Positions 1 through 15,353 of a DNA stretch of 64,000 nt are shown in pieces. Every line of letters begins with the position of its first letter. Position 1 is the stretch's first letter. The translations under genes and the position numbers were made by a program. This DNA comes from Escherichia coli phage NG_A1: the sequence record LC788705.1. One strand, 5' to 3'. The notes under the pieces are model-generated. The model saw nothing but the letters and a program-made list of their open reading frames with translations. It made no database searches and was not told the origin of the DNA.

Positions 1-200
1 ATGAGAATGATTCTCATTTAAAAAGCGGAATGAGAATGATAATAATTCGCATTTAAGAATGGAAGTGAGAATTATTCAGGAAGTGAAACGATTCTCATTT
101 AAAAAGCAGAATGATTCTCATTTAGAAAGTGGAACGCAAATAATAGTGATTCGTATTTAAGAACGGAAGTGAGAAACACTATTATTTAAGTTATCCACAG
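1..200. repeat. Cluster of near-palindromic GAGAAT(G/C)ATTCTC units plus a ~55-bp imperfect tandem direct repeat (approx 26-85 and 140-200)
   Basis: Palindrome copies read at 3-15 and 108-120, half-sites at 32-40 and 89-97; two ~55-bp units align at ~80% identity. Confidence 0.7.
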
Positions 201-300
201 ACTTATTAACAGCACGATTTGACTTGACAGAATCCTAGCCATTTTGGGGTGTTATTAACAGACTTATCCACAGCTTATCCTACTGTATAAATATACAGTA
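181..300. repeat. Inverted-repeat arm A (~120 bp) carrying DnaA boxes
   Basis: Reverse complement of 4321-4440 aligns over ~120 bp with scattered mismatches; TTATCCACA at 191-199 and 264-272. Confidence 0.8.
191..272 (+). promoter_or_regulatory. Two consensus DnaA boxes (TTATCCACA) at 191-199 and 264-272
   Basis: Exact 9-mer matches to the E. coli DnaA box consensus TTATNCACA. Confidence 0.6.
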
Positions 301-483
301 TTCCTACGCAGTGAATAATTCTAATATAGCGTTAAAACGTCCTAGATCGCATTCTAACGCGTTTAATTTTGGTGGGGATACTAAAACACGGGCAAAATTG
401 GAGGAGGCTTGAAAATTAGTTAGCTCGCTAACGATCACACAAGGCGACACGTAACACCCTAATCATTAGCAGGCTAACCATCG

Positions 484-530
484 CGGGCGCGGTCAAATGA
501 GAATCATTCTCATTTGAGAATTGGGGGCAC
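484..530 (+). repeat. ~40-bp element CGGGCGCGGTCAAATGAGAATCATTCTCATTTGAG, copy 1
   Basis: Similar element recurs in direct orientation at 10506-10544; contains the GAGAATCATTCTC palindrome. Confidence 0.6.
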
Positions 531-666
531 TTCCCGATAGTTGCGCCCCGTGATTATTATAGTAGCGGGCAACCGTTACGCTTTGCCCACTCCCGCCACT
601 CATCTTGATGCCTAGACTTGCGACGGCGTACTAAAAACCGCTTGTACCAGTGATTAAACCATCGTT

Positions 667-870
667 TCATAAACCCTCCTCCGGTAGTCGATGCGTGATC
701 TTCTCCTCCTCCCCGTAGGAATCCACCAAATACTGATAATAACCATCGTGATCATAAATCACTTTATCATATTCGCCCCGCTCGACCGCTTGCCGATTCT
801 CCGGCGTATCTGGCACGTAAAAAACATCAACCATTGTACTGATTTTGGTTACAATAATTTTATTGCTCAT
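667..870 (-). CDS. Hypothetical pre-early protein (67 aa), last gene of the minus-strand operon
   Basis: ORF with GGAG Shine-Dalgarno (TAACGGAGCGTTATT-ATG). Confidence 0.55.
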   Translation of the reverse strand: MSNKIIVTKISTMVDVFYVPDTPENRQAVERGEYDKVIYDHDGYYQYLVDSYGEEEKITHRLPEEGL

Positions 871-885
871 AATAACGCTCCGTTA

Positions 886-993
886 TTAAAAATTACCATA
901 TATTCCCGGCCAAATTTTACTAGTAACATAAGTTACTATTCCTGCCGTAATTATGCTATAAACTACTAATAAGGTAAACATTAAACCAGACAT
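886..993 (-). CDS. Small hydrophobic peptide (35 aa, MSGLMFTLLVVYSIITAGIVTYVTSKIWPGIYGNF)
   Basis: Hand-translated; AGGAG RBS upstream; predicted single TM helix; below the ORF-track size cutoff. Confidence 0.4.
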   Translation of the reverse strand: MSGLMFTLLVVYSIITAGIVTYVTSKIWPGIYGNF

Positions 994-1001
994 AATAACT
1001 C

Positions 1002-1097
1002 CTAGTAAATATATTTTTGCCAATGGTGGCGAACGTTGTCGCCACCAGCGGAATCATTAGCTGCCTTAACATTACCAACGAAAATATATAATTTCAT
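1002..1097 (-). CDS. Small peptide (31 aa) containing an internal 8-bp-stem hairpin
   Basis: Hand-translated; GGGAG RBS upstream; short, speculative. Confidence 0.3.
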   Translation of the reverse strand: MKLYIFVGNVKAANDSAGGDNVRHHWQKYIY

Positions 1098-1115
1098 AAT
1101 AACTCCCGTTATTAA

Positions 1116-1274
1116 TTATTTGCGTAAATATACGCTTGCTAGTAGTCCGGCTAGAAAGCCCGCTGATACACCAAATGAAGCCACACCGGGAACACTAGCA
1201 CCATGAGCGTATAAAGCCCAGCAAATTACATAAGGCAACAACGGAAACATGCCAGCTATTAAAAACTTTTTCAT
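1116..1274 (-). CDS. Small hydrophobic membrane peptide (52 aa)
   Basis: Hand-translated; ATGA start/stop overlap with upstream gene; AAGGTGG RBS; two hydrophobic stretches. Confidence 0.45.
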   Translation of the reverse strand: MKKFLIAGMFPLLPYVICWALYAHGASVPGVASFGVSAGFLAGLLASVYLRK

Positions 1275-1615
1275 TGCGCCACCTTTCGAAATGCTGTTTC
1301 AATACTATCAGCCGTGGATTGAATATATGCGCCTTTCATTATCAGGCGCTCGGTGCATACCTTGCGGAAAATATTAATAAAATCCTCTTCATTTTCTGCA
1401 ATCAATGCTTCCCCCATGACCTGAATATCACAAGATGCAAAGGTCAAAAATTGAAACGCTAGTTCACGGGCAACGACCGCATTAATTTTATAATGCGCCT
1501 TGCCCTCATAAATATTAACCACGCCTTTATAAACTGGTGAAAGCTGATTTAAATAGCTTGCTAATAATGCCGGACGGCAATTAGCAACAAAACGATTGCC
1601 CTCATAAATTACCAT
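1271..1615 (-). CDS. Hypothetical pre-early protein (114 aa from ATG; track ORF begins at upstream TTG)
   Basis: ORF track 1271..1630; ATG at 1615 overlaps the stop of the upstream small ORF (ATGGTAA). Confidence 0.55.
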   Translation of the reverse strand: MVIYEGNRFVANCRPALLASYLNQLSPVYKGVVNIYEGKAHYKINAVVARELAFQFLTFASCDIQVMGEALIAENEEDFINIFRKVCTERLIMKGAYIQSTADSIETAFRKVAQ

Positions 1616-1734
1616 TGCGACATCCCCCAAATAGTTGCACCGATAAAGATTAGCTGGCTAACGATGATTAACATAAAACCAATTGAAGGCAGGACGCCCC
1701 AATATTGTAACGCCCTTTTAATTTGCTGAATCAT
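1609..1734 (-). CDS. Small hydrophobic peptide (41 aa)
   Basis: Hand-translated; ATGA overlap with stop of 1731..1943 and ATGGTAA overlap with next start. Confidence 0.4.
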   Translation of the reverse strand: MIQQIKRALQYWGVLPSIGFMLIIVSQLIFIGATIWGMSQW

Positions 1735-1943
1735 AATACCCCACGAAATGCAGCGTAAAAGGTGGCAAAATGTTTAACCGTTTCAGCGATCACGTTGCCG
1801 CGCTTGTCAAATTTCTTTTCAGTAACACGAAAGGCATTCTTATTACGTGCTACGTATTCGATTTTACAATCTTCACGCTCAAACGTGTTTACATCCACCA
1901 GCTTAAAGCCTTTCGAACGTGCAAGAGAAACGTTACGAATCAT
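1731..1943 (-). CDS. Hypothetical pre-early protein (70 aa)
   Basis: ORF track; translationally coupled to both neighbours. Confidence 0.5.
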   Translation of the reverse strand: MIRNVSLARSKGFKLVDVNTFEREDCKIEYVARNKNAFRVTEKKFDKRGNVIAETVKHFATFYAAFRGVL

Positions 1944-1945
1944 TT

Positions 1946-2095
1946 TTATTCTCCTTTACCAGTCATGCAGCCTAGCAGATAAGAAAATGCGGCAATTACC
2001 GCGCCAATAGTAACCGCGTGAACACCGAAAGCTATTGCAAACAAAGATAAAATAGCGCCCAAGATACCAGCTAAAATAGCTCGAAAAATAACCAT
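1946..2095 (-). CDS. Small two-helix hydrophobic membrane peptide (49 aa)
   Basis: Hand-translated MVIFRAILAGILGAILSLFAIAFGVHAVTIGAVIAAFSYLLGCMTGKGE; GGGGAG RBS. Confidence 0.45.
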   Translation of the reverse strand: MVIFRAILAGILGAILSLFAIAFGVHAVTIGAVIAAFSYLLGCMTGKGE

Positions 2096-2144
2096 TTGTA
2101 ATACTCCCCTAGTTAGTGGGGCGAAAGTAACGCCCCGTTATTAA

Positions 2145-2375
2145 TTACATTAAAACAATTTTTGCCGCTTGTTTTTTGGTACAGTGTTCCGCTTTCAGCG
2201 TGTCCAGCAAAAAGCCAGCCGTTTGCTGATCGATTTTATCGGCGTTGTATAGTTCTTGAATGGTGTTATAAGTTTTAGCAATGCCGAACTCCTGTACCAT
2301 TTCATGAATGATGACGCGATTAGATACCCAGCCTTGCGCGGTAAACAGATGACTAGCAGAAGAATACGCAACCAT
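2145..2375 (-). CDS. Hypothetical pre-early protein (77 aa from the RBS-supported ATG)
   Basis: ORF track 2145..2408; GGAGG RBS precedes internal ATG at 2375. Confidence 0.5.
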   Translation of the reverse strand: MVAYSSASHLFTAQGWVSNRVIIHEMVQEFGIAKTYNTIQELYNADKIDQQTAGFLLDTLKAEHCTKKQAAKIVLM

Positions 2376-2480
2376 TTTAAGCCTCCAAATTTTTGGGAAA
2401 ATTTTCAACCGTCCTTAAACGGTGTAAAGGCATTATAACAAAAAGGCCACCATAAAAGGCGACCTTTACAAAACTTTACA

Positions 2481-2975
2481 TTAGACTACTTGTAGGGATT
2501 CAATATTGAAACATCGTTTCAATTCGTCATGCAAAACAGCGTATTCCTCCCATCGGGTACTATCAGGAATATAAACAAGCTGTTTTAATCGGTTTGCATA
2601 TATTACCGCTTTGTTATCGACTATCTCGACGCCGCCATATTTAATAATTAATTTCATGACGGAATTAATAGGATCGCCGCCGTTTACATATGTGCCGGAT
2701 TTACTTAACTGATAATGATAAAGGCTTGCGTATACGTTTTCATTTTCATACCATTCGCCAGTATCCTCGTCTTCATAGCCATCGCTACCAAAACGAGAAG
2801 CATTATCAATAGCCATTTCATGAGCGAAAGCGTCCAGATCCGTACCAGCAGGAACAAAGTATTCCTCGGTATTCCCTTCTCCGCAATAGCCAGTATGGCA
2901 ATCGACTAAAATGATCATATCATGTTTAGCCGTGCTCACTTCCCCTAGCGAGAAGCCGTATTTTTCCTCAGCCAT
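2481..2975 (-). CDS. Hypothetical pre-early protein (164 aa), acidic, Cys/His motif CHTGYCGEG
   Basis: ORF track; no domain recognised. Confidence 0.55.
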   Translation of the reverse strand: MAEEKYGFSLGEVSTAKHDMIILVDCHTGYCGEGNTEEYFVPAGTDLDAFAHEMAIDNASRFGSDGYEDEDTGEWYENENVYASLYHYQLSKSGTYVNGGDPINSVMKLIIKYGGVEIVDNKAVIYANRLKQLVYIPDSTRWEEYAVLHDELKRCFNIESLQVV

Positions 2976-3040
2976 TAGTTAGCCTCCTATTAATTAACAA
3001 GGGAATAGTAAAGCGGGGTAACAATCCCCGCTTAATATTA

Positions 3041-4058
3041 TTACTCGCTTTCGGTGTTAGTGGTAAAAGTAGAAATATCGATACCTTTTACCATTTCATC
3101 AATCATTTCAGCGATGTTAAAACTTTGCACCATTTCCAGCATTGCCGCTTCCATAGCCGCCCCTGCTACCGCTTTCGCCTTTTGGTTATTTGGGGCGTAT
3201 TGGTCAACCGCTACACTCAGCAGGTTAGCAATCACTACTCGACCAATAGGCGTATCGATATAACCTTTGATCATGAATGGTGCTTTTTTAGCCGCTACTT
3301 TCGTAATTTGAGTTAATGCAATTTTACCCGCCTCCAGTTTTGCAGCATTTACAACAGCGGATTTATTGGCGGCAACAATGTTAGCAATCTTGGTCATGGT
3401 GTTTTTTCCTTTGTTTTCAGTAGTTTGAGTGTTAACGCTTTGAGTGTTAGAATTTACAGCATGGTTTTCTACGCTGTCAATAATCTGATCTTCATCTTTC
3501 CAGAAAGAAAAACCAGCGCTTTCTATATCCCCATCATAAATATATGGGTATAGCTCCCGTGGTAACAAAAAATTACCGTCGTCATCAAAAGCCATTATAC
3601 CAGTATATTGAGATCCGTCGTTATCCGGCTTATGCCATCCAGCTGGTAAATACTTCCAGATAACATCTAAAAATCCCTCAATACTAGAAAGTCCGTTTAT
3701 CAGATCAAGCCCAATAAGCTCAAAACCATTTATATTAAATGATTGACGGCCTGAATTGCTATGATACGCAACAATATTATTACCCTGCGCAATAATAAAA
3801 TCGGTATCCGGCCCCGCTCCCCTGCCTGTAAAGATATGGCAATCCCGATTATATATATAAAACTAGCGTTGCCCCTTGCTTATATAATGGTAGAAAACTA
3901 TCCATATCATAGGCGTCATAATCATCAAAAAAGTTTTGATGAATAGTTTCAGCCTTGTTAATAAAATGTTTAATGCTGGTTGACTTGCTACCGTCCAGCA
4001 GGTTGCGCAATGCACCTTTTAAAACGGTGGCATTATCAGGTTTATACAGCCTCATTTG
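3041..4058 (-). CDS. Hypothetical pre-early protein, apparently interrupted by a +1 frameshift near 3849-3865 (fused product ~340 aa)
   Basis: Track ORFs 3849..4199 and 3041..3595 are joined by an 89-codon stop-free, start-less stretch (3596-3862) in the frame of the downstream ORF; strong GAGGGAGG RBS before ATG at 4058. Confidence 0.4.
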
Positions 4059-4320
4059 TTCGGCCTCCCTCGTTAATCGGTGAGTGAATGATATAGATAT
4101 TTGTTCACTAGGGGCAAGAAAAAAGAAAATGTTTTTTATTCCTTGCCTAGCGCCTAGTTTTATGCTAACCGCGCAGCGGTACAGTAAAGAGCAAAACACG
4201 GTGAAGCCACCAGGGCGACTGGTGAAGGCTTTACTTTAATATTACCCCACCGCATTTAGCTCGTTAGAAAGCGTTTTAGGCCGCTTAAAATTAATTGCAG
4301 TCGTTAACACTACCTTTCTA

Positions 4321-4440
4321 CCCTGTATATTTATACAGTAGGATAACATGTGGATAAGTCTGTGGATAAGTCCTTATATCGCCGCCTATCGTGTCAAGTT
4401 AATTTACAAAATGTATAAGGCTGTGGATAACTTAAATGAT
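4321..4440. repeat. Inverted-repeat arm B (~120 bp) carrying DnaA boxes
   Basis: Reverse complement matches 181-300; TGTGGATAA at 4349-4357, 4361-4369 and 4422-4430. Confidence 0.8.
4349..4430 (-). promoter_or_regulatory. Three consensus DnaA boxes on the complementary strand (4349-4357, 4361-4369, 4422-4430)
   Basis: Exact reverse-complement matches to TTATCCACA. Confidence 0.6.
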
Positions 4441-4620
4441 AGTGGTTCTCACTAACTAATTTATGCAGTTATTGTATAACAAAATATAGTTAGTTGGCTA
4501 ATAGGATTTTAAAGTGATTATGAGTCTGCTAATTAAACCTGAAAAACTCATTAGGTAGTCTGCTAATGATTTTGATATAATATAATAGAGATTAAATTAA
4601 TAACATAAGGAAACAATTAG

Positions 4621-5139
4621 ATGCCTAAATATAAAGATATAGATTATGACCTTTTTAATAGTTACTTTTATTATGATGAAACAGCGTTATCATTTTTACG
4701 TTGGCGGGAGGATCACGCCGTCGCAGGTGGTTTAAATGGTAATTATTGGCAAGTTGAACTATTAGACATGGGACAATTCAAAGTACATAGAATTATCTTT
4801 TGTATAATGAATGGCGGTATAGATAGCGAGCTAATGATTGATCATATTGATCGTAACACACGTAACAATAACATCTGGAATCTTCGCGCGGTTGATAGTT
4901 CGCAGAATAATTATAATCGTACTCCTAGTGAGTATGAAAACTGTAAGCGTGCTAATGGTATCCCTAGAAACATTTACGTTAATAAAGTTCGCCCCCGTGA
5001 TAGTTTCGGGCGTGATTATTTAACTGCTCAAATTAAGAATCCTATTACTAACAAGCGTGTTAGTAAGTCTGGTTATGATTTACAAGAGTTATTATTATGG
5101 CTTGAAGCTAAAAAAGCTGAATTTGGAATTGTCAATTAA
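4621..5139 (+). CDS. HNH homing endonuclease (HNH_3-type)
   Basis: Motif IDHIDRNTRNNNIWNLR; AT-rich flanks; extended -10 TGATATAAT upstream. Confidence 0.7.
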   Translation: MPKYKDIDYDLFNSYFYYDETALSFLRWREDHAVAGGLNGNYWQVELLDMGQFKVHRIIFCIMNGGIDSELMIDHIDRNTRNNNIWNLRAVDSSQNNYNRTPSEYENCKRANGIPRNIYVNKVRPRDSFGRDYLTAQIKNPITNKRVSKSGYDLQELLLWLEAKKAEFGIVN

Positions 5140-5637
5140 TTAATTTTATAAAATAACTCGTTTAGTCTTGATTTTTAAAAGTCAATATCTTTTACAACTA
5201 TTTTTCAATTTTGCTTTTGTTAAATATTTGTTAAATCGAAAATAAGCCGCCTAAAACGCCCTAGAACGCGATGAAGTTTTTAGCCATGCCATTGCATTGC
5301 CTGCCCTCGTTTATCGCTGCCACGAGCTTTTTAGATTTTGTCAAGTAGGGCAAAGCAAATATAAATGAAAAATTACTTGCCTATCTGCTTTATTTTGTGG
5401 TATTCGCGCGCCCGTTTCTTTTAATTTTAGGCCGTCGCCGCACGGTGTCCGGTGAGTTTTACCTTTACGTTTCTTTACAAAAATAAGGTTGCGCCGTTTT
5501 TAGTATTTGCTATTATTTATCTCGTAGGACGGCAACGGACTACAACGGCGGGAAGTTTACCGCCGCGCTCTTTAAAAATTGGGTACATCTTAAAGCCTAT
5601 CGGCGGTAAACTTATTACATTATAAGGAATCGACGAT

Positions 5638-5841
5638 ATGAAACAAACGCTTTTGATCACTGGCAAGCCTATTAAGGCACTAGATAGCAAAACAAAAAAC
5701 TTGTTGACAGTAGCACAAAGATCAGTAAAATATAGATTCACGCAGTACAAGAAAGGTCGCCAGCAAGGTCTGGAAATGATCTGGCGAAATATTATGATTG
5801 ACCTAAAAGAAAATCATAAAAAATTGCAAAAAATTGTTTGA
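5638..5841 (+). CDS. Small basic protein (67 aa) flanked by a 24-bp inverted repeat
   Basis: ORF track; Lys/Arg-rich; inverted repeat at 5581-5604 and 5859-5882. Confidence 0.4.
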   Translation: MKQTLLITGKPIKALDSKTKNLLTVAQRSVKYRFTQYKKGRQQGLEMIWRNIMIDLKENHKKLQKIV

Positions 5842-6071
5842 CAACCTAGCCGATAGGTTTTAAGATGTACCCAGTTCGATAAGAGCGATAACTTGATAAA
5901 ATTTGACGGTCGGTGCTTACCATAATGCATCCCGCCCCCTAACGGGATATAGCGGCCTACGTGGAGTTCTTTAAAATTGATTATATTGGCGAGCGGATTG
6001 TTACTTATTACCTGCTGTTACTTTCTAGCAGGTAATGCGGAACAATCCCCAAATAACTAGGAGTTTATATT

Positions 6072-6323
6072 ATGCAAAACGTTATTACCGCGCCGAAAGT
6101 TGGTCAATCCGTCTTCATTCCTTTCGTTACTAAAACGGATGAATTAACCGGAAAGGCCGAACGTATTAAAGGTGCGGCGCTTATGCCGTTCGATACAATC
6201 GACGCGGTATACGCTGAAAATGAACGTAGTAACAACGGCAAGCCCGTTTTTAGCGTTCGCGTTAAATCCGGCGATGTTGTAAAGGTTGTTCAACGCAACG
6301 AAAAATGGGAAGCTGTATTGTAA
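6072..6323 (+). CDS. Hypothetical pre-early protein (83 aa)
   Basis: ORF with AGGAG RBS; followed by a stem-loop at 6337-6362. Confidence 0.55.
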   Translation: MQNVITAPKVGQSVFIPFVTKTDELTGKAERIKGAALMPFDTIDAVYAENERSNNGKPVFSVRVKSGDVVKVVQRNEKWEAVL

Positions 6324-6419
6324 ATTAGTGTTAACTTTATATCCCCTTATTTCAGGGGGATATAACGATTAACATTAAGTTAATCTAATCCCTTAAATTA
6401 AACTAATAGGAGTTACATC

Positions 6420-6827
6420 ATGACTAACGCTAAAACCGCAAAATTCGCATGGAATGAAGAAAACACTCAGAAAGCTGTTTCCATGTATCAACAGTTAATT
6501 AATGAAAACGGTTTAGATTTCGCAAATAGCGACGGCCTGAAAGAGATTGCAAAAGCAGTAGGCGCGGCCTCCCCCGTATCCGTTCGCTCAAAATTGACCA
6601 GTGCAAAAGCCTATCAAAAAAGCGATAAGCCGCGTAAAGTTGGCGGCGGTAGCTCTGTGCGTAAAGCTCACTATGTGCGCGTTATCGCTAAACATGCTAT
6701 TGATTCCGGCATTATCAAAGACGCCGATGATTTGGCAAGCCTTGAAAGTGCAAAACTTGAAACGCTGGACGCAGTAGCGCAATTGTTAGGCGTTGCCGAT
6801 GAAGTAAAACAGGCCGCAGGCGAATAA
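6420..6827 (+). CDS. A2: Putative pre-early DNA-binding protein, A2-like (135 aa)
   Basis: Size and position immediately upstream of the A1-like gene; basic C-terminal half; AGGAG RBS; name assigned from memory of T5. Confidence 0.45.
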   Translation: MTNAKTAKFAWNEENTQKAVSMYQQLINENGLDFANSDGLKEIAKAVGAASPVSVRSKLTSAKAYQKSDKPRKVGGGSSVRKAHYVRVIAKHAIDSGIIKDADDLASLESAKLETLDAVAQLLGVADEVKQAAGE

Positions 6828-6917
6828 TAGTTATATCTTGCCCCCTTTTAGTGAGGGGGCAATAATATAACTGTTTAGCGATAGTTATTTTCTTCCCTTA
6901 AATCAGGAGTTTTAAAA

Positions 6918-7115
6918 ATGGTTTTCTCCCCTACTGAATCTTTAATTCTAGGCTTATTTATTATGGCGGCCTCCCTATTATTCGCTTATTTTCAAAATGA
7001 TTTAGATTCGTATTATTTTAAACGTAAATCTAAATTAGCAAAACGTTTAGGTCTGCTTTGTTTTATCGCTGCCGTTGCTTGTGGTGTTAGTTCTAGCCTA
7101 GTGCCTTTAAATTAA
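6918..7115 (+). CDS. Small membrane protein (65 aa, two predicted TM helices)
   Basis: ORF with CAGGAG RBS; hydrophobic stretches LILGLFIMAASLLFAYF and LLCFIAAVACGVSSSLV. Confidence 0.5.
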   Translation: MVFSPTESLILGLFIMAASLLFAYFQNDLDSYYFKRKSKLAKRLGLLCFIAAVACGVSSSLVPLN

Positions 7116-7205
7116 TATTGCAAATTATAACGCCTATTGTTCGAGGCGTTATATTTGGCAATATTGCCGTTACTAACCTAATCCCTTTAATGGAGTTTTA
7201 TTACT

Positions 7206-8876
7206 ATGATTATTTCCGCAGAAAAACAAACCGTTATCCTGAAAATGGCCGCTGACTTTAACTTCTACGGTAAACGCCTGCGCGCCACTAAATTGGAAGT
7301 TTGTGACGATATTTCGAAAGCGGTATACGATACTACTAAACACTCCACCGCCATTTGTGATTGGTTGGAAGCAAATAAACCAGCGAAACCAAAAGCGGCA
7401 AAAGTAGCAAAAGCCATTAAAAACGATGAGCGCCCAGAAGCGGCGGGAATTGTTTCTAGTACGGTTGAGCAATGGGAAGTAAAACAGGGTAAACGCTTTA
7501 TTATTACGTCGATTCAAAATAATACTTTCCCGCATAAAAACTTTTTAGCCTCACTGGAGCAATTTGCTAAATATATCGGTGCTGATTTGCTTGTTTCTAA
7601 GTATATTTATAATAAAAACGGTTTTCAAAATGGGGAAGGTGCGGATGGAATCAAATATGATTCCGCGTTCGATAAATATATTTGCAGCAAAAACGTGTTT
7701 TTAAATAACCGCCGCTTTGCTTTCATGGCTGAAATTAATGTTTTGCCAACCGCAGATTATCCGCTTTCTGGATTCGCCGAGACTGCAACGGCTTTAAATA
7801 TTGAGGGGCTGGCAATTGGTCACGCTAAAATTACCGCTGAAAGCGTGCCAGCTTTAAAAGGTGAAGTAGTGCGCCGTATGTACTCAACCGGAACGGCAAC
7901 GCTCAAAAACTACATTCAGCAGAAAGCAGGACAAAAAGCGGAAGCACTGCATAACTTCGGTGCGCTTATTGTTGAGTTCGACGACGACGGGGAATTTTTT
8001 GTTCGCCAGCTTGAAACAATGGACGAAAGCGGGGTGTTTTATGATCTGAACGTTTGCGCTACTCCTGCCGGATGCTATGAAACAACGGGGCATGTTTTAG
8101 GCTTGCAATATGGCGATATCCACGCCGAGAAATTAGATGAGGAGTGCGCCGCCGCATCTTGGGGGCATGGTGATACTTATGGGCTTGTGGATATTCTTAA
8201 ACCAAAATATCAGTTTGTACATGACGTGCATGATTTTACATCGCGCAACCATCACAACCGCGCATCGGGTGTATTCCTAGCGAAACAGTATGCAGCCGGA
8301 CGTGATAAAGTTCTGGATGATCTTATCGATACGGGGCGCGTACTGGAATCAATGGAGCGCGATTTTAGTCAAACAATCATTGTTGAATCGAATCACGATT
8401 TGGCGCTATCCCGTTGGCTTGATGATCGTAATGCTAACATCAAAGACGATCCAGCAAACGCCGAGTTATATCACCGCCTGAATGCTGCAATTTACGCGGC
8501 AATCGGTGAACACGACGAAACGTTTAACGTGCTAGATTATGCGTTGCGCAAGGTTGCAGGTTGTGAATTTAACGCCATTTTCCTAACGACTGACCAATCT
8601 TTCAAGATTGCAGGTATTGAATGCGGCGTACACGGTCACAATGGCATTAACGGGAGCCGTGGCAATCCGAAACAGTTTAAGAAATTGGGCAAATTAAACA
8701 CGGGGCACACCCATACCGCCAGCATTTACGGCGGCGTTTATACCGCTGGCGTGTCTGGTAGTCTGGACATGGGTTACAACGTTGGCGCGTCAAGCTGGAC
8801 GCAAACGCATGTTATTACCTATGCAAACGGTCAGCGCACTTTGATCGACTTTAAAAACGGTAAATTCTTTGCGTAA
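7206..8876 (+). CDS. A1: Pre-early protein A1, metallophosphoesterase-like (556 aa)
   Basis: Phosphoesterase-like motifs GDIH, GHGDTYG, ESNHD, GVHGHNG; 556 aa matches T5 A1 size as I recall. Confidence 0.75.
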   Translation: MIISAEKQTVILKMAADFNFYGKRLRATKLEVCDDISKAVYDTTKHSTAICDWLEANKPAKPKAAKVAKAIKNDERPEAAGIVSSTVEQWEVKQGKRFIITSIQNNTFPHKNFLASLEQFAKYIGADLLVSKYIYNKNGFQNGEGADGIKYDSAFDKYICSKNVFLNNRRFAFMAEINVLPTADYPLSGFAETATALNIEGLAIGHAKITAESVPALKGEVVRRMYSTGTATLKNYIQQKAGQKAEALHNFGALIVEFDDDGEFFVRQLETMDESGVFYDLNVCATPAGCYETTGHVLGLQYGDIHAEKLDEECAAASWGHGDTYGLVDILKPKYQFVHDVHDFTSRNHHNRASGVFLAKQYAAGRDKVLDDLIDTGRVLESMERDFSQTIIVESNHDLALSRWLDDRNANIKDDPANAELYHRLNAAIYAAIGEHDETFNVLDYALRKVAGCEFNAIFLTTDQSFKIAGIECGVHGHNGINGSRGNPKQFKKLGKLNTGHTHTASIYGGVYTAGVSGSLDMGYNVGASSWTQTHVITYANGQRTLIDFKNGKFFA

Positions 8877-8931
8877 ATAAATTATTTCCCCTAGCGGCTT
8901 GAAATATAGCCGCTATTACAGGAGTCAAAAA

Positions 8932-9189
8932 ATGAAAGTTACATTACCCAAAACATTGGACGAAAAAGTATTCATTTCACCGGATGAAATGGAATCTGAT
9001 AAAGTTTACAGCTTCGGGCCTATCCTAGCCGCCAAAACTAATACGGATGGTATTATTTCCGTCGATTCCCGTGATAACGATATTGTCCCTTTTGATGATG
9101 ATGGCGCTTTTTATGAGTGGCTAAGCGATAATAATTTACCCGTAAACGGTGAATTAACGCCGTACCAGATGCAGATTATTATCAAATAA
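8932..9189 (+). CDS. Hypothetical pre-early protein (85 aa from the RBS-supported ATG)
   Basis: ORF track 8899..9189; AGGAG RBS precedes ATG at 8932. Confidence 0.5.
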   Translation: MKVTLPKTLDEKVFISPDEMESDKVYSFGPILAAKTNTDGIISVDSRDNDIVPFDDDGAFYEWLSDNNLPVNGELTPYQMQIIIK

Positions 9190-9227
9190 ATTAAATCCAT
9201 TATTAAACTAATTGGGGTTTTATAAAT

Positions 9228-9626
9228 ATGAAAAAGCAAAATATTCCATTCGATCGCGCTCAATCTTCTATTGTTCTGGTTTATTCTAATGGCGAACGTT
9301 ACCACGTCGAGGCGGGGCACGTTATTGATGAATTACTAGACTTTAATGACGCTTTGCAGGTTACTACCTTTGCCTATACGCAAGCCCGCGCAAGTAGCTA
9401 CATTAAGGCCGTAGGCGTTTATGTTGACACGGTGAAGCAAGAAACGATTATCATCGACGCAGTAAAATCCGGTCTAGCCTTTGCAGTTGTCGCGCCTTGC
9501 CCCGCTTGCCTCGATGATCAATTGATCAGCGCAAAGGTATATACCTGCGCGGGTATCCGTTCCCATGTATCAGGTGAGGATGTTAGTTTTATCGCTGATG
9601 CGTTGGCTTTTGGTCTGGCGTTCTAA
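9228..9626 (+). CDS. Hypothetical pre-early protein (132 aa)
   Basis: ORF track; followed by a stem-loop at 9640-9668. Confidence 0.5.
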   Translation: MKKQNIPFDRAQSSIVLVYSNGERYHVEAGHVIDELLDFNDALQVTTFAYTQARASSYIKAVGVYVDTVKQETIIIDAVKSGLAFAVVAPCPACLDDQLISAKVYTCAGIRSHVSGEDVSFIADALAFGLAF

Positions 9627-9705
9627 TAGTTAATTTATTATTACCCGCTATTTATAAGCGGGTAATGCTGAATAAACTAAATCCCTTAAATGGAGAACGT
9701 AACAA

Positions 9706-10440
9706 ATGAATAAAGCTATTATTAATTCTTTCCGTAATTTCCCGCATATTTCCCGCGTCATGATTTGGGATTTAGACGGCACTATCATTAATTCTTTCCA
9801 TCGCGTAGCGCCTTGCTTTGATAGCGAGGGCAATTTAGATTTAAATAAGTATAAAAATGAAGCCTGCAAACATCATTTAATAATGCAAGATTCCTTATTG
9901 CCATTGGTTGAATATATGCGCCAGTGCATGAATGACGCAAATACTTTAAACATTATTTGCACCGCTCGACTGATGAGCAAGTCGGACTATTATTATTTGC
10001 GTAAACAAGGGTTGCGCGGTCGTGGCGATAGCAATATCCGCGTGTTTTCTCGCGATACACTGCATAAATATTTTAAAGCTGATAAAGTTAGCGAGATATA
10101 CCACAGCAAAGACGCAGTATATAAATCTTATTACTTTGAATTATTTAAACAATTATATCCGAACGCTGATTTTACAATGATTGATGATCATAAAGGCGTG
10201 CTATCAGCGGCGGCATCATACGGATTTAAAACGCTGGATGCGCAAGCCGTTAATGATATTCTATCAATAGGTGTAACATTAATAGGTGAAACCTTTATTG
10301 ATGAATCGCTCGACGATGATAATGATTATCAATTCCTAGCTGACCGTTTAAAATTATGCTGGGAAGGTATGACCGAGGAAGAACGCGCAGAATATAGTTG
10401 CAGCCCGCAACAATATATTGAGAAATTAAAAGTTGCCTAA
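9706..10440 (+). CDS. dmp: HAD-superfamily phosphatase, T5 dmp-like 5'-deoxyribonucleotidase (244 aa)
   Basis: HAD motif I IWDLDGTII near the N-terminus; TGGAG RBS; position matches the T5 pre-early set. Confidence 0.65.
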   Translation: MNKAIINSFRNFPHISRVMIWDLDGTIINSFHRVAPCFDSEGNLDLNKYKNEACKHHLIMQDSLLPLVEYMRQCMNDANTLNIICTARLMSKSDYYYLRKQGLRGRGDSNIRVFSRDTLHKYFKADKVSEIYHSKDAVYKSYYFELFKQLYPNADFTMIDDHKGVLSAAASYGFKTLDAQAVNDILSIGVTLIGETFIDESLDDDNDYQFLADRLKLCWEGMTEEERAEYSCSPQQYIEKLKVA

Positions 10441-10505
10441 CAATTAAAGTTGAAATAGTCACGGTGTGTAATGATAACATGCCGTGACTATTAGCTTGCT
10501 AAGTA

Positions 10506-10544
10506 CCGGGCGGTAATGAGACTCATTCTCATCTGGAGGGCCAC
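10506..10544 (+). repeat. ~40-bp element CCGGGCGGTAATGAGACTCATTCTCATCTGGAG, copy 2
   Basis: Direct repeat of the element at 484-530, ~10.0 kb downstream, just after the dmp-like gene. Confidence 0.6.
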
Positions 10545-10591
10545 TGGACACACCTCCATGTGTAATCTTATGAAATTTGGCAAAAAGTCAA

Positions 10592-10837
10592 TTAGCGCAT
10601 AGAAGGGTCATCAAAACGATGTTCAGGTTTAAACTCACGAAATCTCTTCCGCGACGCCCGAGATCCATCCGACCATTCTCGCTCAAACTCCGCACGTTTC
10701 TCGTCAAACTTCCGCTCCCTTTCCGCAATCTCCCGCGTCACTCCCGCAATATATTTACGATGCTTGTTGATTGCCGCAGTTGTCCCGAAAACCCCCGCGA
10801 GTATCCCGATAATAAAAGCAATTACAATACTAAACAT
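10592..10837 (-). CDS. Small membrane-anchored protein (81 aa) with charged C-terminal domain
   Basis: N-terminal TM helix FSIVIAFIIGILAGVFGTTAAI followed by an Arg/Glu-rich tail. Confidence 0.5.
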   Translation of the reverse strand: MFSIVIAFIIGILAGVFGTTAAINKHRKYIAGVTREIAERERKFDEKRAEFEREWSDGSRASRKRFREFKPEHRFDDPSMR

Positions 10838-11024
10838 CTAATTCCCTCTCAATTTGCAGAATACGGGTACTATCACAACGTTGCAGTAGTGCTAGCTTTT
10901 CTAGAGTAACTTGTTGTTGTTTTACCTGAGCTTCTAGAGTTTTTAGGCGAACGTACACGGTGTAAGAAATAATGAAAACTGCCCAGACTAGTATTACTGT
11001 TAGTGTAGCTACTACCTCCATCAT
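10830..11024 (-). CDS. Small membrane-anchored coiled-coil protein (64 aa)
   Basis: N-terminal TM helix, then heptad-like LKTLEAQVKQQQVTLEKLALL. Confidence 0.5.
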   Translation of the reverse strand: MMEVVATLTVILVWAVFIISYTVYVRLKTLEAQVKQQQVTLEKLALLQRCDSTRILQIERELDV

Positions 11025-11128
11025 TTACATTTCTCCGATAGTAAGGTTTCGATTCTAGCTAAGTGATTATCTAAGATACATTGCCCCATAATCACAATCC
11101 CTAGTAATGCAATAATTACCCATTCCAT
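11021..11128 (-). CDS. Small membrane peptide (35 aa)
   Basis: Hand-translated MEWVIIALLGIVIMGQCILDNHLARIETLLSEKCK; TAATG and ATGA overlaps with neighbours. Confidence 0.35.
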   Translation of the reverse strand: MEWVIIALLGIVIMGQCILDNHLARIETLLSEKCK

Positions 11129-11256
11129 TAAATCCATCCCGCCATAGCTGCTAACCAAAAACCTACGAAAATAAAGAATAGGATAGTTCCGAATCCAAAG
11201 CTATTAATCCAGCTATCGTACACTTCTCCACGTCTGCTCTTTCTTTTGTTTGACAT
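11128..11256 (-). CDS. Small membrane peptide (42 aa)
   Basis: Hand-translated MSNKRKSRRGEVYDSWINSFGFGTILFFIFVGFWLAAMAGWI; AGGAG RBS. Confidence 0.4.
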   Translation of the reverse strand: MSNKRKSRRGEVYDSWINSFGFGTILFFIFVGFWLAAMAGWI

Positions 11257-11434
11257 ATCTTTCGTGCTCCTATAAATATGGTATTTTAAAATATTTTATA
11301 ATTTGTGTAATAACCAACCATGCTTGTGACTTCCTAGAAGGACTTCTACTTTTCTTACATAGTGGTTTCTGCCAATATACCATCCAAAAAATAAAAAATT
11401 TAGTTTACTTGGATGTCTTTTTGCTTTATACTAA

Positions 11435-11701
11435 TTACAGGTAGTTAGATTGCTCTAGTTTAAATTTACAATCACCGTATTTAAGATCAAACTGACTGAG
11501 ATCCCACCACCCAAACTTAGTACGGAGCTGTACTACTGGGAAGCGATCTCCCTTAATACGAACTTTTTGAATCTTGAGGCCGTAATGTTCTTCTCCCGCA
11601 CCGCCAAAAGATTTTACAAATCCAGTACAAAATGGTTTGGGAGCAGGTGCACAACCAGATAACATAACTGCGGCAACTAGTGCAATCACAAACTTTTTCA
11701 T
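11435..11701 (-). CDS. llp: Lipoprotein Llp-like, candidate receptor-blocking superinfection-exclusion protein (88 aa)
   Basis: Signal peptide with lipobox LSGC; divergent from and adjacent to the receptor-binding protein gene; own TTGCTT-N17-TATAAT promoter. Confidence 0.7.
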   Translation of the reverse strand: MKKFVIALVAAVMLSGCAPAPKPFCTGFVKSFGGAGEEHYGLKIQKVRIKGDRFPVVQLRTKFGWWDLSQFDLKYGDCKFKLEQSNYL

Positions 11702-11732
11702 ATTTATCTCTCCATTTCTAATTTATGAATCT

Positions 11733-11761
11733 ATTATAGCAAAATAGAGGGATGAAAGCAA
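11733..11761 (-). promoter_or_regulatory. Sigma70-type early promoter for llp (TTGCTT-N17-TATAAT)
   Basis: -35 at 11756-11761 and -10 at 11733-11738 on the minus strand, 17-bp spacer. Confidence 0.65.
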
Positions 11762-11786
11762 ATACATTTTTATAATAGGAGATTAT

Positions 11787-13544
11787 ATGGGTTTTTTCGC
11801 TGGAAAATATAGCGATGGTAAGACCGTACTATCCTTAAATACTGAATCTGGTGGTGACATTAATCGTCACTATAGTCCAAATAATAATAGTATTTTTCAT
11901 AGTGATATGCCATTTGTTCTAGTTGATGGTACTTATGAGGTAGGATTAGGTGATGCCGGGAATGGGTTTTTCGTATGTCAGATGCCTCCTGATATAGTAA
12001 ATATTAAATCTAATGATCCTGGTAGAGTTATACTAACTGCTATTGAAATTAACGGCACTCACAGAGCTTTTCTTAATGGTACTCAGAGTAAAGTTGGTCA
12101 AACTATAGTTGCCACTCAAGCAGATCCCTTTAGATCTTTTGCTAGTGTTTCTCAAACCAGTGGATTTGCCTTTGGTAATAGTCTAGCATCCGGCACTTAT
12201 AATTATAATCCCTCTCTAGGGCACGAAGAATCTATCTCTAGGAGTGGTACAGGGGGTACTACGTTACATAGTACCTACCATGGGATAGTTAGGCCCGGTG
12301 CGGGAGCTCCTGTAGGTATTACTGTTGCAGAAGCTTTTGCACAATTAGGTTTTCCTATTAATAGTAGCACAGTACCTATAGATGGCAATAACCCGTACTA
12401 TTGGGATCCTGGATGGATATCACCTCTAGGAGCAGCGCATAGAGGGCATGATTGGTTTTATGTCTGCAATTCTAATATACGTGGATATGGTGGGGTTAGG
12501 CAAGGGCTCCCAGGTAATGTAAATACTATGTACCACGACGGTGGGAACAGATTTGTTTGTAGGGGATCTACTACTAATCTGGCCAACCAGTCTGGCAATC
12601 CTACGGTAATACAGGACTGGTATAATATAACTCCTACTAAGGTTATTTGGTATGTTCTTAATTTAAGGTACTCTAATAGTGGAATGAGTATTTCAGGCAA
12701 CCCCTTTACTGGTTCTGATATTCTTATATCTCCTTCTAATTTCATAATTAAAGGGGTAAGTCTCCCTAATACCGGGTATAAATTTATAAATCAGAATGCT
12801 TTTGGTAACCTAGGTTACCGTCCTGATATGGAGTATATAGGAAATAACGCAGCGTATACCGGGGTTTTTGGGGATACCACGGCAAGGTGTGAACTTGTAG
12901 GGTCTAGTAATGGAGGAGTATGGTCTCCTGTAGACTATGGTGGAGCTAAATCCCAAATTAGCATTTACAAATTCGGAGCTGGTAAGCAATGGTATGTAAA
13001 CTCTAGGGATAATACTATCGGTAATGAACACGGGGTTGTTTGGGGACCATCAGCAGTTCCATTACGACTTTTTGGTGGAAATGTAGGTAGTTCTTATATG
13101 GGAGATGATATTACTCCCAGCTACCCAGGAACGGGTGATAGATACGTTGGTTTATCAACTATTGGGCTAGGTATACCGGGTGGCAATGCTACAGTAATTC
13201 TTACCACTGAAGTTATATCAGGTAACCTTAACTGTGCAGGTGTTCCTGCTAATACATGGAATAACGGTGTGTTTCAAGTGCAAGGAAGAAGAGCATATAG
13301 CTATAGCGGCGGGGATGCAATATTCCACCAGATTTTAACGCTACCTGTGGGCTATCTAGTACCTTTTCATACTACATCTGCTTTTAGATATACACCTAAC
13401 AATGCTCTAAGTAGAAACAGTTTTATATACACTGTTAAAAATTTAGGAAATGGAAATGTAGAGTTAGGAGTAGTTATGCACGTGAGTTTGGGTAGTGCAG
13501 TTTTCCTACCTAGATTAAGAGTAACAGTTCAACGCCTTACCTAA
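11787..13544 (+). CDS. Receptor-binding tail protein, pb5/Oad-like (585 aa)
   Basis: N-terminus [41 protein letters not shown] resembles the T5 pb5 N-terminus as I recall it; divergent pairing with llp; Gly/Asn/Ser-rich. Confidence 0.6.
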
Positions 13545-13554
13545 AGGAGGAAAT

Positions 13555-14037
13555 ATGGCAAATGATGTATTAGTACCAGATCTTATGTCCCCTGAAGGGA
13601 TGGATGTGATTGAAGCTTATTTACAGTGTGGCAGCGATGCGCCTGCCGCAGCACGTAGTCTTGGAATGTCTGAAATTGCTTTCCGAGATATTATGAATCG
13701 TAGTGAAGTTAAGAACTACTTAAATGATATTTTTATGGAGAGTGGATTCCGTAATAGGGATCGTTTGTTTGGTGTTCTAGATGAAGTTATTAAACGTAAA
13801 CTAGAGGAGCTAGAAGAAACCGGCATGGGTTCTGACCAAGATATTATGGATATTCTATGGAAAGCTCACAAAATGAAGATGGAAGAAATGAAAATGATGG
13901 TGGAGTTAGAGAAAGCTAAAGCCGCCGCTCGAGCTCCTGCTAATCAGACCAATATTCAGAATAACATTATTGCTGGAGCTGGGGACCAAAACTACATGGA
14001 CTTAATTACTTCCCTAGCTACTGGAGGTAAGAAGTAA
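13555..14037 (+). CDS. Terminase small subunit (160 aa)
   Basis: N-terminal HTH-like segment [17 protein letters not shown]; directly upstream of the large terminase with abutting stop/start. Confidence 0.55.
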
Positions 14038-15353
14038 TGGAAGTGTCAAGACCCTATGTTAACACAGTAGATGTTATTGATTTCGGTATAGATAAACGTT
14101 TCTTTCGTCTACCTGTTTCTGGAATACTGGCGCAAGAAGGTATTACACCTAATGGTCCTCAAATAGCAATTATCAATGCGCTAGAAGATCCTAGACATCG
14201 TTTTGTAACGGCATGTGTATCGCGCCGTGTAGGTAAATCCTTCATCGCATACACACTTGGGTTCCTAAAATTGCTGGAACCTAATGTGAAAGTGTTAGTA
14301 GTTGCTCCTAACTACTCACTGGCCAACATCGGATGGTCTCAGATTCGTGGCCTTATTAAAAAGTACGGCCTACAGACCGAACGTGAGAACGCTAAAGATA
14401 AAGAGATTGAGTTAGCTAATGGTTCTCTATTTAAACTAGCTTCCGCGGCTCAGGCTGACTCCGCAGTTGGACGTTCATATGATTTTATCATCTTTGATGA
14501 GGCGGCAATTTCCGATGTGGGTGGTGATGCCTTCAGGGTTCAGCTGCGTCCTACCCTAGATAAACCTAATTCTAAGGCTCTATTTATTTCCACCCCTCGT
14601 GGAGGTAACTGGTTTAAAGAGTTTTACGCCTACGGATTTGATGATACGTTGCCTAACTGGGTATCTATTCATGGTACATATCGTGATAACCCACGTGCCG
14701 ACTTGAATGATATTGAGGAAGCACGTCGTACAGTTAGTAAAAACTACTTCCGCCAAGAATACGAGGCTGACTTCTCTGTATTCGAAGGACAGATATTTGA
14801 TACCTTTAATGCTATCGATCATGTTAAAGATCTCAAAGGTATGCGTCACTTCTTTAAAGATGATGAAGCATTCGAAACGTTGCTTGGTATTGACGTTGGT
14901 TATCGTGACCCTACAGCAGTTCTTACTATTAAATATCACTACGATACGGATACTTACTATGTGTTAGAAGAGTACCAGCAGGCGGAAAAAACTACAGCCC
15001 AGCATGCTGCTTATATTCAGCATTGTATAGATCGTTATAAAGTTGATCGTATTTTTGTTGACTCTGCCGCCGCTCAGTTCCGCCAGGACTTAGCTTATGA
15101 GCATGAAATTGCATCGGCTCCAGCTAAAAAATCTGTCCTAGATGGCCTAGCATGTCTGCAGGCATTATTCCAACAGGGTAAAATTATTGTAGATGCCTCA
15201 TGTTCCTCCTTAATTCATGCATTGCAGAACTATAAGTGGGACTTCCAAGAAGGTGAAGAGAAATTATCACGTGAAAAACCACGTCATGATGCTAACTCTC
15301 ACCTTTGTGATGCGCTCCGCTATGGAATTTACTCTATTTCCCGTGGTAAATAA
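14037..15353 (+). CDS. Terminase large subunit (438 aa)
   Basis: Walker A-like SRRVGKS, Walker B FIIFDEAA, C-terminal nuclease-type acidic motifs; GGAGG RBS. Confidence 0.85.
   Translation: MEVSRPYVNTVDVIDFGIDKRFFRLPVSGILAQEGITPNGPQIAIINALEDPRHRFVTACVSRRVGKSFIAYTLGFLKLLEPNVKVLVVAPNYSLANIGWSQIRGLIKKYGLQTERENAKDKEIELANGSLFKLASAAQADSAVGRSYDFIIFDEAAISDVGGDAFRVQLRPTLDKPNSKALFISTPRGGNWFKEFYAYGFDDTLPNWVSIHGTYRDNPRADLNDIEEARRTVSKNYFRQEYEADFSVFEGQIFDTFNAIDHVKDLKGMRHFFKDDEAFETLLGIDVGYRDPTAVLTIKYHYDTDTYYVLEEYQQAEKTTAQHAAYIQHCIDRYKVDRIFVDSAAAQFRQDLAYEHEIASAPAKKSVLDGLACLQALFQQGKIIVDASCSSLIHALQNYKWDFQEGEEKLSREKPRHDANSHLCDALRYGIYSISRGK

Follow-up and report, generated by a model that had tools for sequence, protein, structure and literature searches.

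Candidate Fur boxes and a conserved terminus element in the predicted direct terminal repeat of the T5-like Escherichia coli phage NG_A1

Two puzzles concerning bacteriophage T5 have stood open for decades: what halts DNA entry once 8% of the genome is in the cell, and how the phage cuts and regenerates its long terminal repeats. According to the T5 annotation, first-step-transfer (FST) DNA corresponds to the left terminal repeat of 10,219 bp, in which dmp is 123 bp away from the left physical end and the untranslated injection-stop signal (iss) region occupies the inner end. The repeats of this region (Heusterspreute 1987 and Wang 2005, as cited in Davison 2020, bioRxiv 10.1101/866236) include ‘Repeat Region 3’, which contains DRE1/2, copies of DRC, palE-palJ and an IRD'-spacer-IRC' unit with DnaA boxes (bioRxiv 10.1101/866236). 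In the T5 repeat literature the palindromes either have no known function or are considered as possible cut sites of a restriction-like kind, and Davison’s account, in which repeat function is called ‘impossible to guess’ and DnaA and a restriction-like role are discussed, never mentions Fur or iron (10.1101/866236). The stretch analysed here, 64,000 nucleotides of Escherichia coli phage NG_A1 (sequence record LC788705.1; hereafter the window), opens with an array of related palindromes and contains two longer related elements, referred to as E1 and E2, which lie about 10.0 kb apart.

The first 12 kb of the window match 493 T5-like phage records by megablast at 85-93% identity, the best-matching record being ~92-93% identical, and comparison of the open reading frames (ORFs) with the T5 annotation shows that gene order is the reverse of that in T5. 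Since dmp is near the left end and iss at the inner repeat end of the T5 map, the window opens within the iss end of the repeat. By homology, it runs from there to the dmp end at ~10.55 kb and on into the unique region, and positions 1-10549 correspond to most of the ~10-11 kb direct terminal repeat (DTR) of a T5-like phage.

Alignment identifies the palindromes at 1-185 with the DRE/DRC/‘pal’ repeats already described in the T5 injection-stop region. Positions 1-370 are collinear with T5 9,330-9,760, a long untranslated stretch at the inner terminal-repeat end (alignment by eye; megablast with T5 and MM-1), and the first palindrome is homologous to T5 9,560-9,720. The members of repeat family D4 (4-71 and 108-175) are 85% identical, and the inverted repeats I1, I2 and I13 of the iss unit pair with 4323-4453, with I2 joining 168-206 to 4415-4453 at 92% complementarity. 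The initial annotation, made from the letters alone, had reported a palindrome at 3-15, where GAGAATGATTCTC is indeed exact, and half-sites at 32-40 (GAGAATGAT) and 89-97 (cgATTCTCa), both of which were found; its second palindrome is also present, although placed one base off at 108-120, the actual position being 107-119, where it reads CAGAATGATTCTC with one mismatch. With up to two mismatches allowed, GAGAATSATTCTC has 8 matches in the 64 kb compared with 1.74 expected, a number reached in none of 100 shuffles, and the palindrome family is non-random.

One suggestion of the initial annotation, that the palindromes are binding sites for a dimeric regulator, turns out to be the better description of the family, which at the sequence level consists of 9-1-9 boxes for the bacterial iron regulator Fur (AATGAGAATnATTCTCATT) that appear equivalent to Fur operators. 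Fur boxes have been described as a 19-bp sequence in E. coli (GATAATGATAATCATTATC), as a 7-1-7 arrangement (TGATAATnATTATCA) and as a 9-1-9 arrangement in Xanthomonas (AATGAgAATcATTctCATT) (PMC4506495, PMC10665472, PMC1790865). The phage half-site TGAGAAT differs by one base from the 7-1-7 half-site TGATAAT, the boxes at 28-54 match the E. coli consensus at 15 of 19 positions, and the core of E1 is identical to the Xanthomonas consensus (19/19). GATAATGAGAATCATTATT is a listed iron box in the literature and Acinetobacter Fur boxes read TTAAATGAGAATCATTTTCATTTAT.

A position weight matrix of ten iron boxes from the literature, used with a uniform background, accepted too many sites in AT-rich DNA and was replaced by a model derived from E. 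coli K-12. For this, a Gibbs sampler was run on ten Fur-regulated intergenic regions (fepA-fes, fepD-entS, fepB-entC, fhuA, cirA, fecI, fecA, tonB, exbB and fiu), and the window was scored with the phage’s own composition as background. The motif found de novo was (A/T)TGATAATnATTnTCATTT; its training sites, left out one at a time, scored 11-21 bits and the window sites 13-23 bits (Table 1), with E1 exceeding every K-12 training site. In the reciprocal direction, a model made only from eight phage sites was used to scan 44 kb of E. coli DNA, 5% of which consisted of Fur-controlled intergenic regions, and its top seven matches were all Fur operators: fhuA first, followed by fecI, exbB, fepB-entC (twice), fecA and fiu. 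Palindrome symmetry set the register of the phage sites, so that there is little circularity in this reciprocal search.

The Fur-type sites are concentrated in the repeat. At a threshold of 10 bits, the DTR part of the window contains 18 clusters where 1.34 are expected (~13-fold), and at 15 bits it contains 8 where 0.09 are expected, neither count being reached in 300 shuffles. In the other 53 kb (10551-64000) the 10-bit threshold yields 2 clusters where 5.4 are expected, and 99 of 100 shuffles equal or exceed that number, so that sites outside the repeat are if anything depleted. The layout recurs in 23 relatives, which have three to five array sites of 19-25 bits, the E1 site, the Repeat Region 2 site by the DnaA boxes (kept at 14-19 bits), a site internal to dmp, and E2; the 10 kb of unique DNA flanking the repeat in these relatives has almost no Fur-type sites. 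Pectobacterium, Klebsiella and Aeromonas phages also have Fur-type arrays.

Two further groups of sites lie within coding sequence. All close relatives and a Klebsiella phage share the double box inside dmp, 200 bp from E2, and Vibrio phage Ceto has a weaker form of it; protein constraint may explain it. Sites at 2641-2659 (14.2 bits) and 2791-2809 (17.7 bits) lie inside an ORF on the minus strand (2481-2975) and recur at the same relative positions in many relatives.

E2 is a deeply conserved element. Its ~27-nt core, GGGCGGTAATGAGACTnnTTnTCAT, is single copy per repeat, and the 16-mer within the element (GGGCGGTAATGAGACT) occurs exactly once per repeat copy in every relative and once in the 64-kb window. 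The core is invariant in T5-like phages of Escherichia/Salmonella, Pectobacterium, Aeromonas and Vibrio and in ~70 environmental contigs. Distant Demerecviridae were chosen for comparison, with A1 proteins 31-67% identical, and in Pectobacterium phage DU_PP_V, Aeromonas phage AhSzw-1 and Vibrio phages JSF10 and Ceto the core follows dmp by 50-85 bp with the 16-mer invariant. In Tequintavirus type A, in DU_PP_V and in L130, which belongs to another genus, the 16-mer is 42 nt from the end of the record; with T5 type B and Ceto included, E2 and the DNA end are separated by a constant 42-43 nt in all five lineages. Conservation continues on the unique side of the boundary, where the consensus reads CACC..CA[T/C]GT(G)TAA.CTT..AAATTT. 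Close relatives have two alleles at this end, the window type with the palindrome and the T5 type (GGCGGTTAGCAGACTAAGTATTTTCGCC), which is homologous but has lost the right half of the palindrome.

An exact-match scan of IMG/VR for the 16-mer gave 106 stretches, most of them from environmental metagenomes; 80 are listed and the counts given here refer to those. The exact box extension is present in 69 of the 80, one-base variants in 9, and 2 are apparent chance matches. A dmp homologue is nearby in 58, and downstream on the same strand as E2 there is a homologue of the terminase small subunit (TerS) in 55 and of the large subunit (TerL) in 44. The start of TerS is 170-1,000 bp from the 16-mer in 27 of the 80, compared with 3.0 kb in the window, and E2 is always oriented towards the terminase genes. 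Its single copy per repeat, its constant distance from the DNA end and its orientation extend over subfamilies of the Demerecviridae and many uncultured relatives. Together with a location upstream of the terminase genes and with conserved sequence to either side of the cut, these properties are what is expected of a terminase recognition and cleavage signal, and we read E2 as part of the packaging cut signal, with terminase as its putative reader.

Many environmental versions of the terminus (L066, L068, L090, L099 and others) have a perfect GC palindrome, for example AGCGCGGCCGCGCT, at +27 to +42 from the 16-mer, which ends approximately at the predicted cut (~+41) and is followed by CCCCnCACGTAC; its sequence varies among contigs and its symmetry is kept. 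The proposal that the cut always falls in the loop of a local inverted repeat was rejected, as the stems are just slightly longer than those in shuffles (4.2 vs 3.0) and their position relative to +42 is inconsistent.

The repeat boundaries were taken from 38 loci around dmp from IMG/VR, among which nine genomes have both repeat copies. In 8 of these 9 the ‘a’ end of the repeat reads ...GGCCACTGGAC(A)/ACACCTCCATGTG (the slash marks the repeat edge), which is window 10549/10550, and the ‘z’ end reads ...gagttttta/GAGCCACAGAAATTTTCAC. The annotated right terminal repeat (RTR) of MM-1 agrees with both edges, and the left physical end of T5 maps to window 10550, so that the predicted boundary at 10549/10550 is based on contig and record ends of relatives, the MM-1 RTR annotation and the T5 left end. 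Vibrio phage Ceto has both copies of an 8,301-bp repeat, the end of which is 43 nt from the start of the 16-mer, and repeat lengths in relatives range from 8.1 to 10.8 kb.

The z end lies outside the window, ~509 bp before its first position (window 1 is position 510 of the MM-1 locus) and ~990 bp beyond E1. The ~500 bp that separate the palindrome array from it (MM-1 locus 1-510; T5 9,760-10,219) contain ~8-9 copies of TGTCGGATT(T/C)GCACA, the DRD repeats, and the window starts at exactly the first palindrome after these, which may be where the source record or assembly was opened. The z end is conserved among Tequintavirus genomes (a/GAGCCACAGAAATTTTCACTTGTCAAGC; for example L007 at 459, L023 at 640 and L055 at 2442), has TTGTCAA and TGCCCC in common with the z end of Ceto (a/GCGACCCCCGTAATTGTCAATTGG), and its GAGCCACAGAA resembles GGGCCACTGGAC of the ‘a’ end; it could represent a second cut signal.

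E1 and E2 were described in the initial annotation as two extended elements in direct orientation that bracket the block containing A1, A2-like and dmp-like genes and that might define the ends of the terminal repeat. Both exist, and they flank the pre-early coding block (667-10440) as described, with a similarity longer than originally claimed: 465-516 and 10490-10535 share 40 of 46 identical columns with 3 gaps, scoring 38 against 13.8 +/- 2.1 in shuffles (0/2000). When the whole window is searched on either strand, E1 is the best non-self match of E2. Their common layout is ATTAGCnnGCTAA, followed by CGGGCG(CG)GT and then AATGAGAnTCATTCTCAT, and both lie behind terminators. A second small palindrome family, TTAGCnnGCTAA(C), occurs at 420-435, 466-481, 1650-1665 and 10491-10503, with one copy directly upstream of E1 and another of E2, and the T5-type terminus has a similar GTTAGCAGACTAAG.

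The two elements differ in their relation to the boundary. E2 lies 15 bp inside it, as had been proposed, whereas E1 is not at an edge: the repeat runs on past it to a z end of different sequence. E1 lacks the invariant 16-mer and sits within a ~115-bp module lacking in T5, K37 and several further loci; E1 itself has no counterpart in T5, K37 and six other loci, all with ordinary repeats. As the repeat extends past E1 and relatives without E1 have normal repeats, E1 is not a boundary, and the ~10.0-kb spacing (485 to 10508), although real, resembles the DTR length by coincidence. E1 is best described as a diverged internal copy of the terminus element restricted to Tequintavirus-type genomes. 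A paired function of E1 and E2 was rejected on account of their independent assortment, since E1 and the palindromic E2 allele are distributed 9, 6, 4 and 4 across the four combinations (25 genomes).

Taken jointly, the locus is probably a T5-like DTR in which the iss palindromes are Fur boxes, E2 is part of the terminase signal and E1 is an internal copy. The repeat would thus form a dense, conserved cluster of high-scoring Fur-type sites (the array, E1, the site at 4436 and E2), with essentially none in the rest of the genome, and holo-Fur, or a phage protein of the same specificity, would occupy them on entering or replicating DNA. E2 would be a composite, asymmetric signal, in which GGGCGGT is followed by a Fur-type box, and its reading by terminase would create the first-injected end; Fur might serve there as an accessory factor, in the way that IHF does at lambda cosB. 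Possible roles of Fur occupancy include sensing of host iron status, blocking of read-through behind the two outward pre-early operons, protection of the entering end and a contribution to the injection stop. A bolder version, which we regard as speculative and would not expect to hold, makes host Fur a built-in cofactor, with the Fur box integral to the packaging and terminus signal of the Demerecviridae and the super-consensus array beside the DnaA boxes as the core of the injection stop. If this were true, first-step transfer, end protection or packaging would be coupled to host iron status, and T5-like phages use Fur-repressed host receptors (FhuA, FepA).

Several observations weigh against this explanation. 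None of the sites has a clear promoter-operator position, with only weak 9/12 promoter-like matches around the elements, which were not counted as evidence, and Vibrio phage JSF10 has E2 but no array. The invariant C of E2 (GAGACT) and its GGGCGGT flank are non-Fur features that lower the Fur score to 15 bits, which points to a second reader other than Fur. The terminus palindrome has been lost in T5 and in a Klebsiella phage, where only GGCG(G)T...CAGACT is kept, which means that the box is dispensable there. With regard to the boundaries, the DTR ends of NG_A1 itself are predicted from those of its relatives, the repeat annotated in K37 departs from the common edges by 15 nt at its ‘a’ end, immediately behind the palindrome, and 29 nt at its z end, and the L016/L019 record, with edges quite unlike the others, would make the repeat 9,968 bp long; these discordant edges were taken as annotation differences, and could reflect differences in method or real variation.

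The strongest rival, which we consider unlikely, is that the palindromes are read by a phage protein, the small terminase subunit and A2 being candidates, and that their likeness to Fur boxes is convergence or mimicry. The non-Fur GGGCGGT and GAGACT of E2 are kept across genera upstream of TerS, the sites are not in operator positions, and the arrays lie in a region that genetics has linked to the injection stop, from which release depends on A1 and A2; A2, required for second-step transfer, is a conserved DNA-binding protein (phrog_1725) encoded in the same repeat. However, the iss sites are degenerate in the manner of natural Fur boxes, with GAGAAT, GATAAT and GCGAAT hexamers in 6-bp phasing, the motif made from phage sites alone retrieves E. 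coli Fur operators without a false positive in its top seven, and E1 matches a Fur consensus at every position; with such matches, Fur would be expected to bind whatever else does. A Pfam scan of A2 and eight other repeat-encoded ORFs returned no DNA-binding domain, only domains of unknown function (DUFs).

It is improbable that E2 is mainly transcriptional, a promoter or operator of the terminase operon for which the position of the DNA end is secondary. Fur boxes are normally operators, and the 27 uncultured relatives with E2 a short distance upstream of TerS on the same strand would fit such a role, but in Tequintavirus-type genomes E2 and TerS are 3 kb apart with genes between them that are partly on the opposite strand, yet E2 is exactly at the repeat edge. 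The distance to the end is fixed in five T5-like lineages, and no sigma-70-like promoter was found around E2.

Less probable again is an action through DNA or RNA secondary structure (a cruciform, terminator hairpin or nicking site) in which no sequence-specific protein takes part. As single strands, all three regions are more stably folded than shuffles (z about -4), a terminator-like hairpin precedes both E1 and E2, and T5 DNA has site-specific nicks, one of which is annotated in the iss region. What is conserved, however, is sequence and not pairing: the 16-mer is invariant, the arms keep their letters without covariation, and the centre base is free (C or G), as for a dimer site. No RNA family was matched, an Rfam scan of 1-11,500 at E <= 1 being empty.

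The idea that E1 and E2 are two recognition or cut sites delimiting a repeat of ~500-10,545 is the least tenable. The elements are homologous and directly oriented, their spacing is within the range of repeat lengths and E2 is truly at the boundary, but identity between repeat copies continues beyond E1 to the z edge in 8 of 9 relatives and in MM-1, the whole T5 iss region is inside the left terminal repeat, and homology thus contradicts it.

Table 1. Features of the predicted terminal repeat and adjoining unique region of the window. Scores in bits are from the K-12-derived Fur model.
Feature	Position	Strand	Details
Palindrome ATGAGAATGATTCTCATTT	1-19	.	First unit of iss DRE/DRC repeat array; Fur-type box, 21.2 bits
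Overlapping Fur-type boxes GAGAATGATAATAATTCGCATTT	28-54	.	6-8 bp spacing; 19.7 (36-54), 12.7 and 12.5 bits
Second palindrome cAGAATGATTCTCATTT	103-123	.	Second unit of 104-nt direct repeat; 15.4 bits (103-121)
Two weaker boxes	140-158, 167-185	.	13.5 and 13.4 bits; second in arm of IRD' inverted repeat
DnaA-box pairs of IRD'-spacer-IRC' unit	191-283	.	TTATCCACA at 191-199 and 264-272; TTATTAACA at 203-211 and 252-260
E1, internal paralogue of terminus element	465-530	+	Core 496-514 = AATGAGAATCATTCTCATT, perfect 9-1-9 palindrome; 23.0 bits
GC-rich hairpin	519-546	-	Downstream of leftward pre-early operon; position of T5’s annotated terminator
Box copy beside DnaA boxes, Repeat Region 2 (IRD arm)	4415-4454	.	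17.5 bits at 4436-4454
A1	7206-8876	+	T5 annotation
dmp 5'-deoxynucleotidase	9706-10440	+	T5 annotation
Double Fur-type box in dmp coding sequence (DDDNDY codons)	10312-10336	.	16/19 to consensus; 18.0 and 15.3 bits
dmp terminator-like hairpin	10454-10493	+	16-bp stem
E2, terminus-proximal element	10490-10535	+	16-mer GGGCGGTAATGAGACT at 10508-10523; box AATGAGACTCATTCTCATC at 10515-10533, 15.2 bits
Predicted DTR boundary = T5-type left physical end	10549..10550	.	42 nt from first G of 16-mer; by homology
Conserved sequence, unique side of cut	10550-10585	+	CACC..CATGTGTAAnCTTnTnAAATTT; cross-genus alignment; 76 distinct junction sequences
Receptor-binding protein gene	11787-13544		Unique region
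Terminase small subunit, TerS	13555-14037	+	phrog_3802, E 3e-90; tblastn; downstream of E2, same strand
Terminase large subunit, TerL	14037-15353	+	Terminase_6N and 6C; tblastn; downstream of E2, same strand

Two features of gene layout stand apart from the elements. The counterpart of T5.011, a DUF7566 protein of 336 aa in T5 and NBSal005, is apparently divided in the window (3041-4199, minus strand), with an ORF at 3041-3595 covering only positions 155-336 of the DUF7566 profile and a separate 116-aa ORF at 3849-4199; a frameshift, an insertion or a pseudogene could account for this. Between E2 and TerS, positions 10551-13554 contain ~3 kb with small membrane/‘moron’ genes, the gene for the receptor-binding protein and one for a Cor/Llp-type lipoprotein. 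Many uncultured relatives have just 170-500 bp between the terminus element and the downstream TerS, and the stretch in the window looks like an inserted host-range module.

Both T5 puzzles can now be put as concrete, testable sequence hypotheses. The injection-stop repeats appear, letter for letter, to be Fur boxes of the high-affinity type confined to the first-injected DNA, and the gene whose operator is the top E. coli match of the phage motif, fhuA, encodes the T5 receptor. Conservation of the terminus element reaches well past the range of protein-level similarity and takes in marine and other uncultured phages, and if E2 is the cut signal, the termini of T5-like genomes and metagenomic contigs could be placed from sequence alone and packaging engineering would gain a handle. 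While the repeats themselves were already known, their identity as Fur boxes and the family-wide terminus element are apparently new: no paper with these strings or with a link between Fur and T5 was found in the searchable literature, subscription literature being outside the search.

Compared with the systems already described, positions 1-300 of the window are the direct homologue of T5 Repeat Region 3: the repeats, their order and the pairing of the DnaA boxes are the same, and Repeat Region 2 has a second copy, while T5 itself has neither E1 nor the palindromic form of E2. The phage sites resemble Fur boxes in length, symmetry and letters, score as high as or higher than genuine E. coli operators, and overlap at 6-8 bp spacing like natural Fur clusters; they differ in lying in an untranslated region, behind terminators and beside a DNA end rather than at the promoters of iron genes, and in the conserved non-consensus C of E2. 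Lambda cosB is a terminase recognition site with an accessory IHF site, and DTR phages of the T7 type have pac sites. E2 would be analogous to these in being single-copy, oriented, conserved, close to the cut and near the terminase genes, with an apparent site for a host protein, but the T5-like repeat is 8-11 kb long, compared with cohesive ends or ~160 bp, and its other end has a different sequence.

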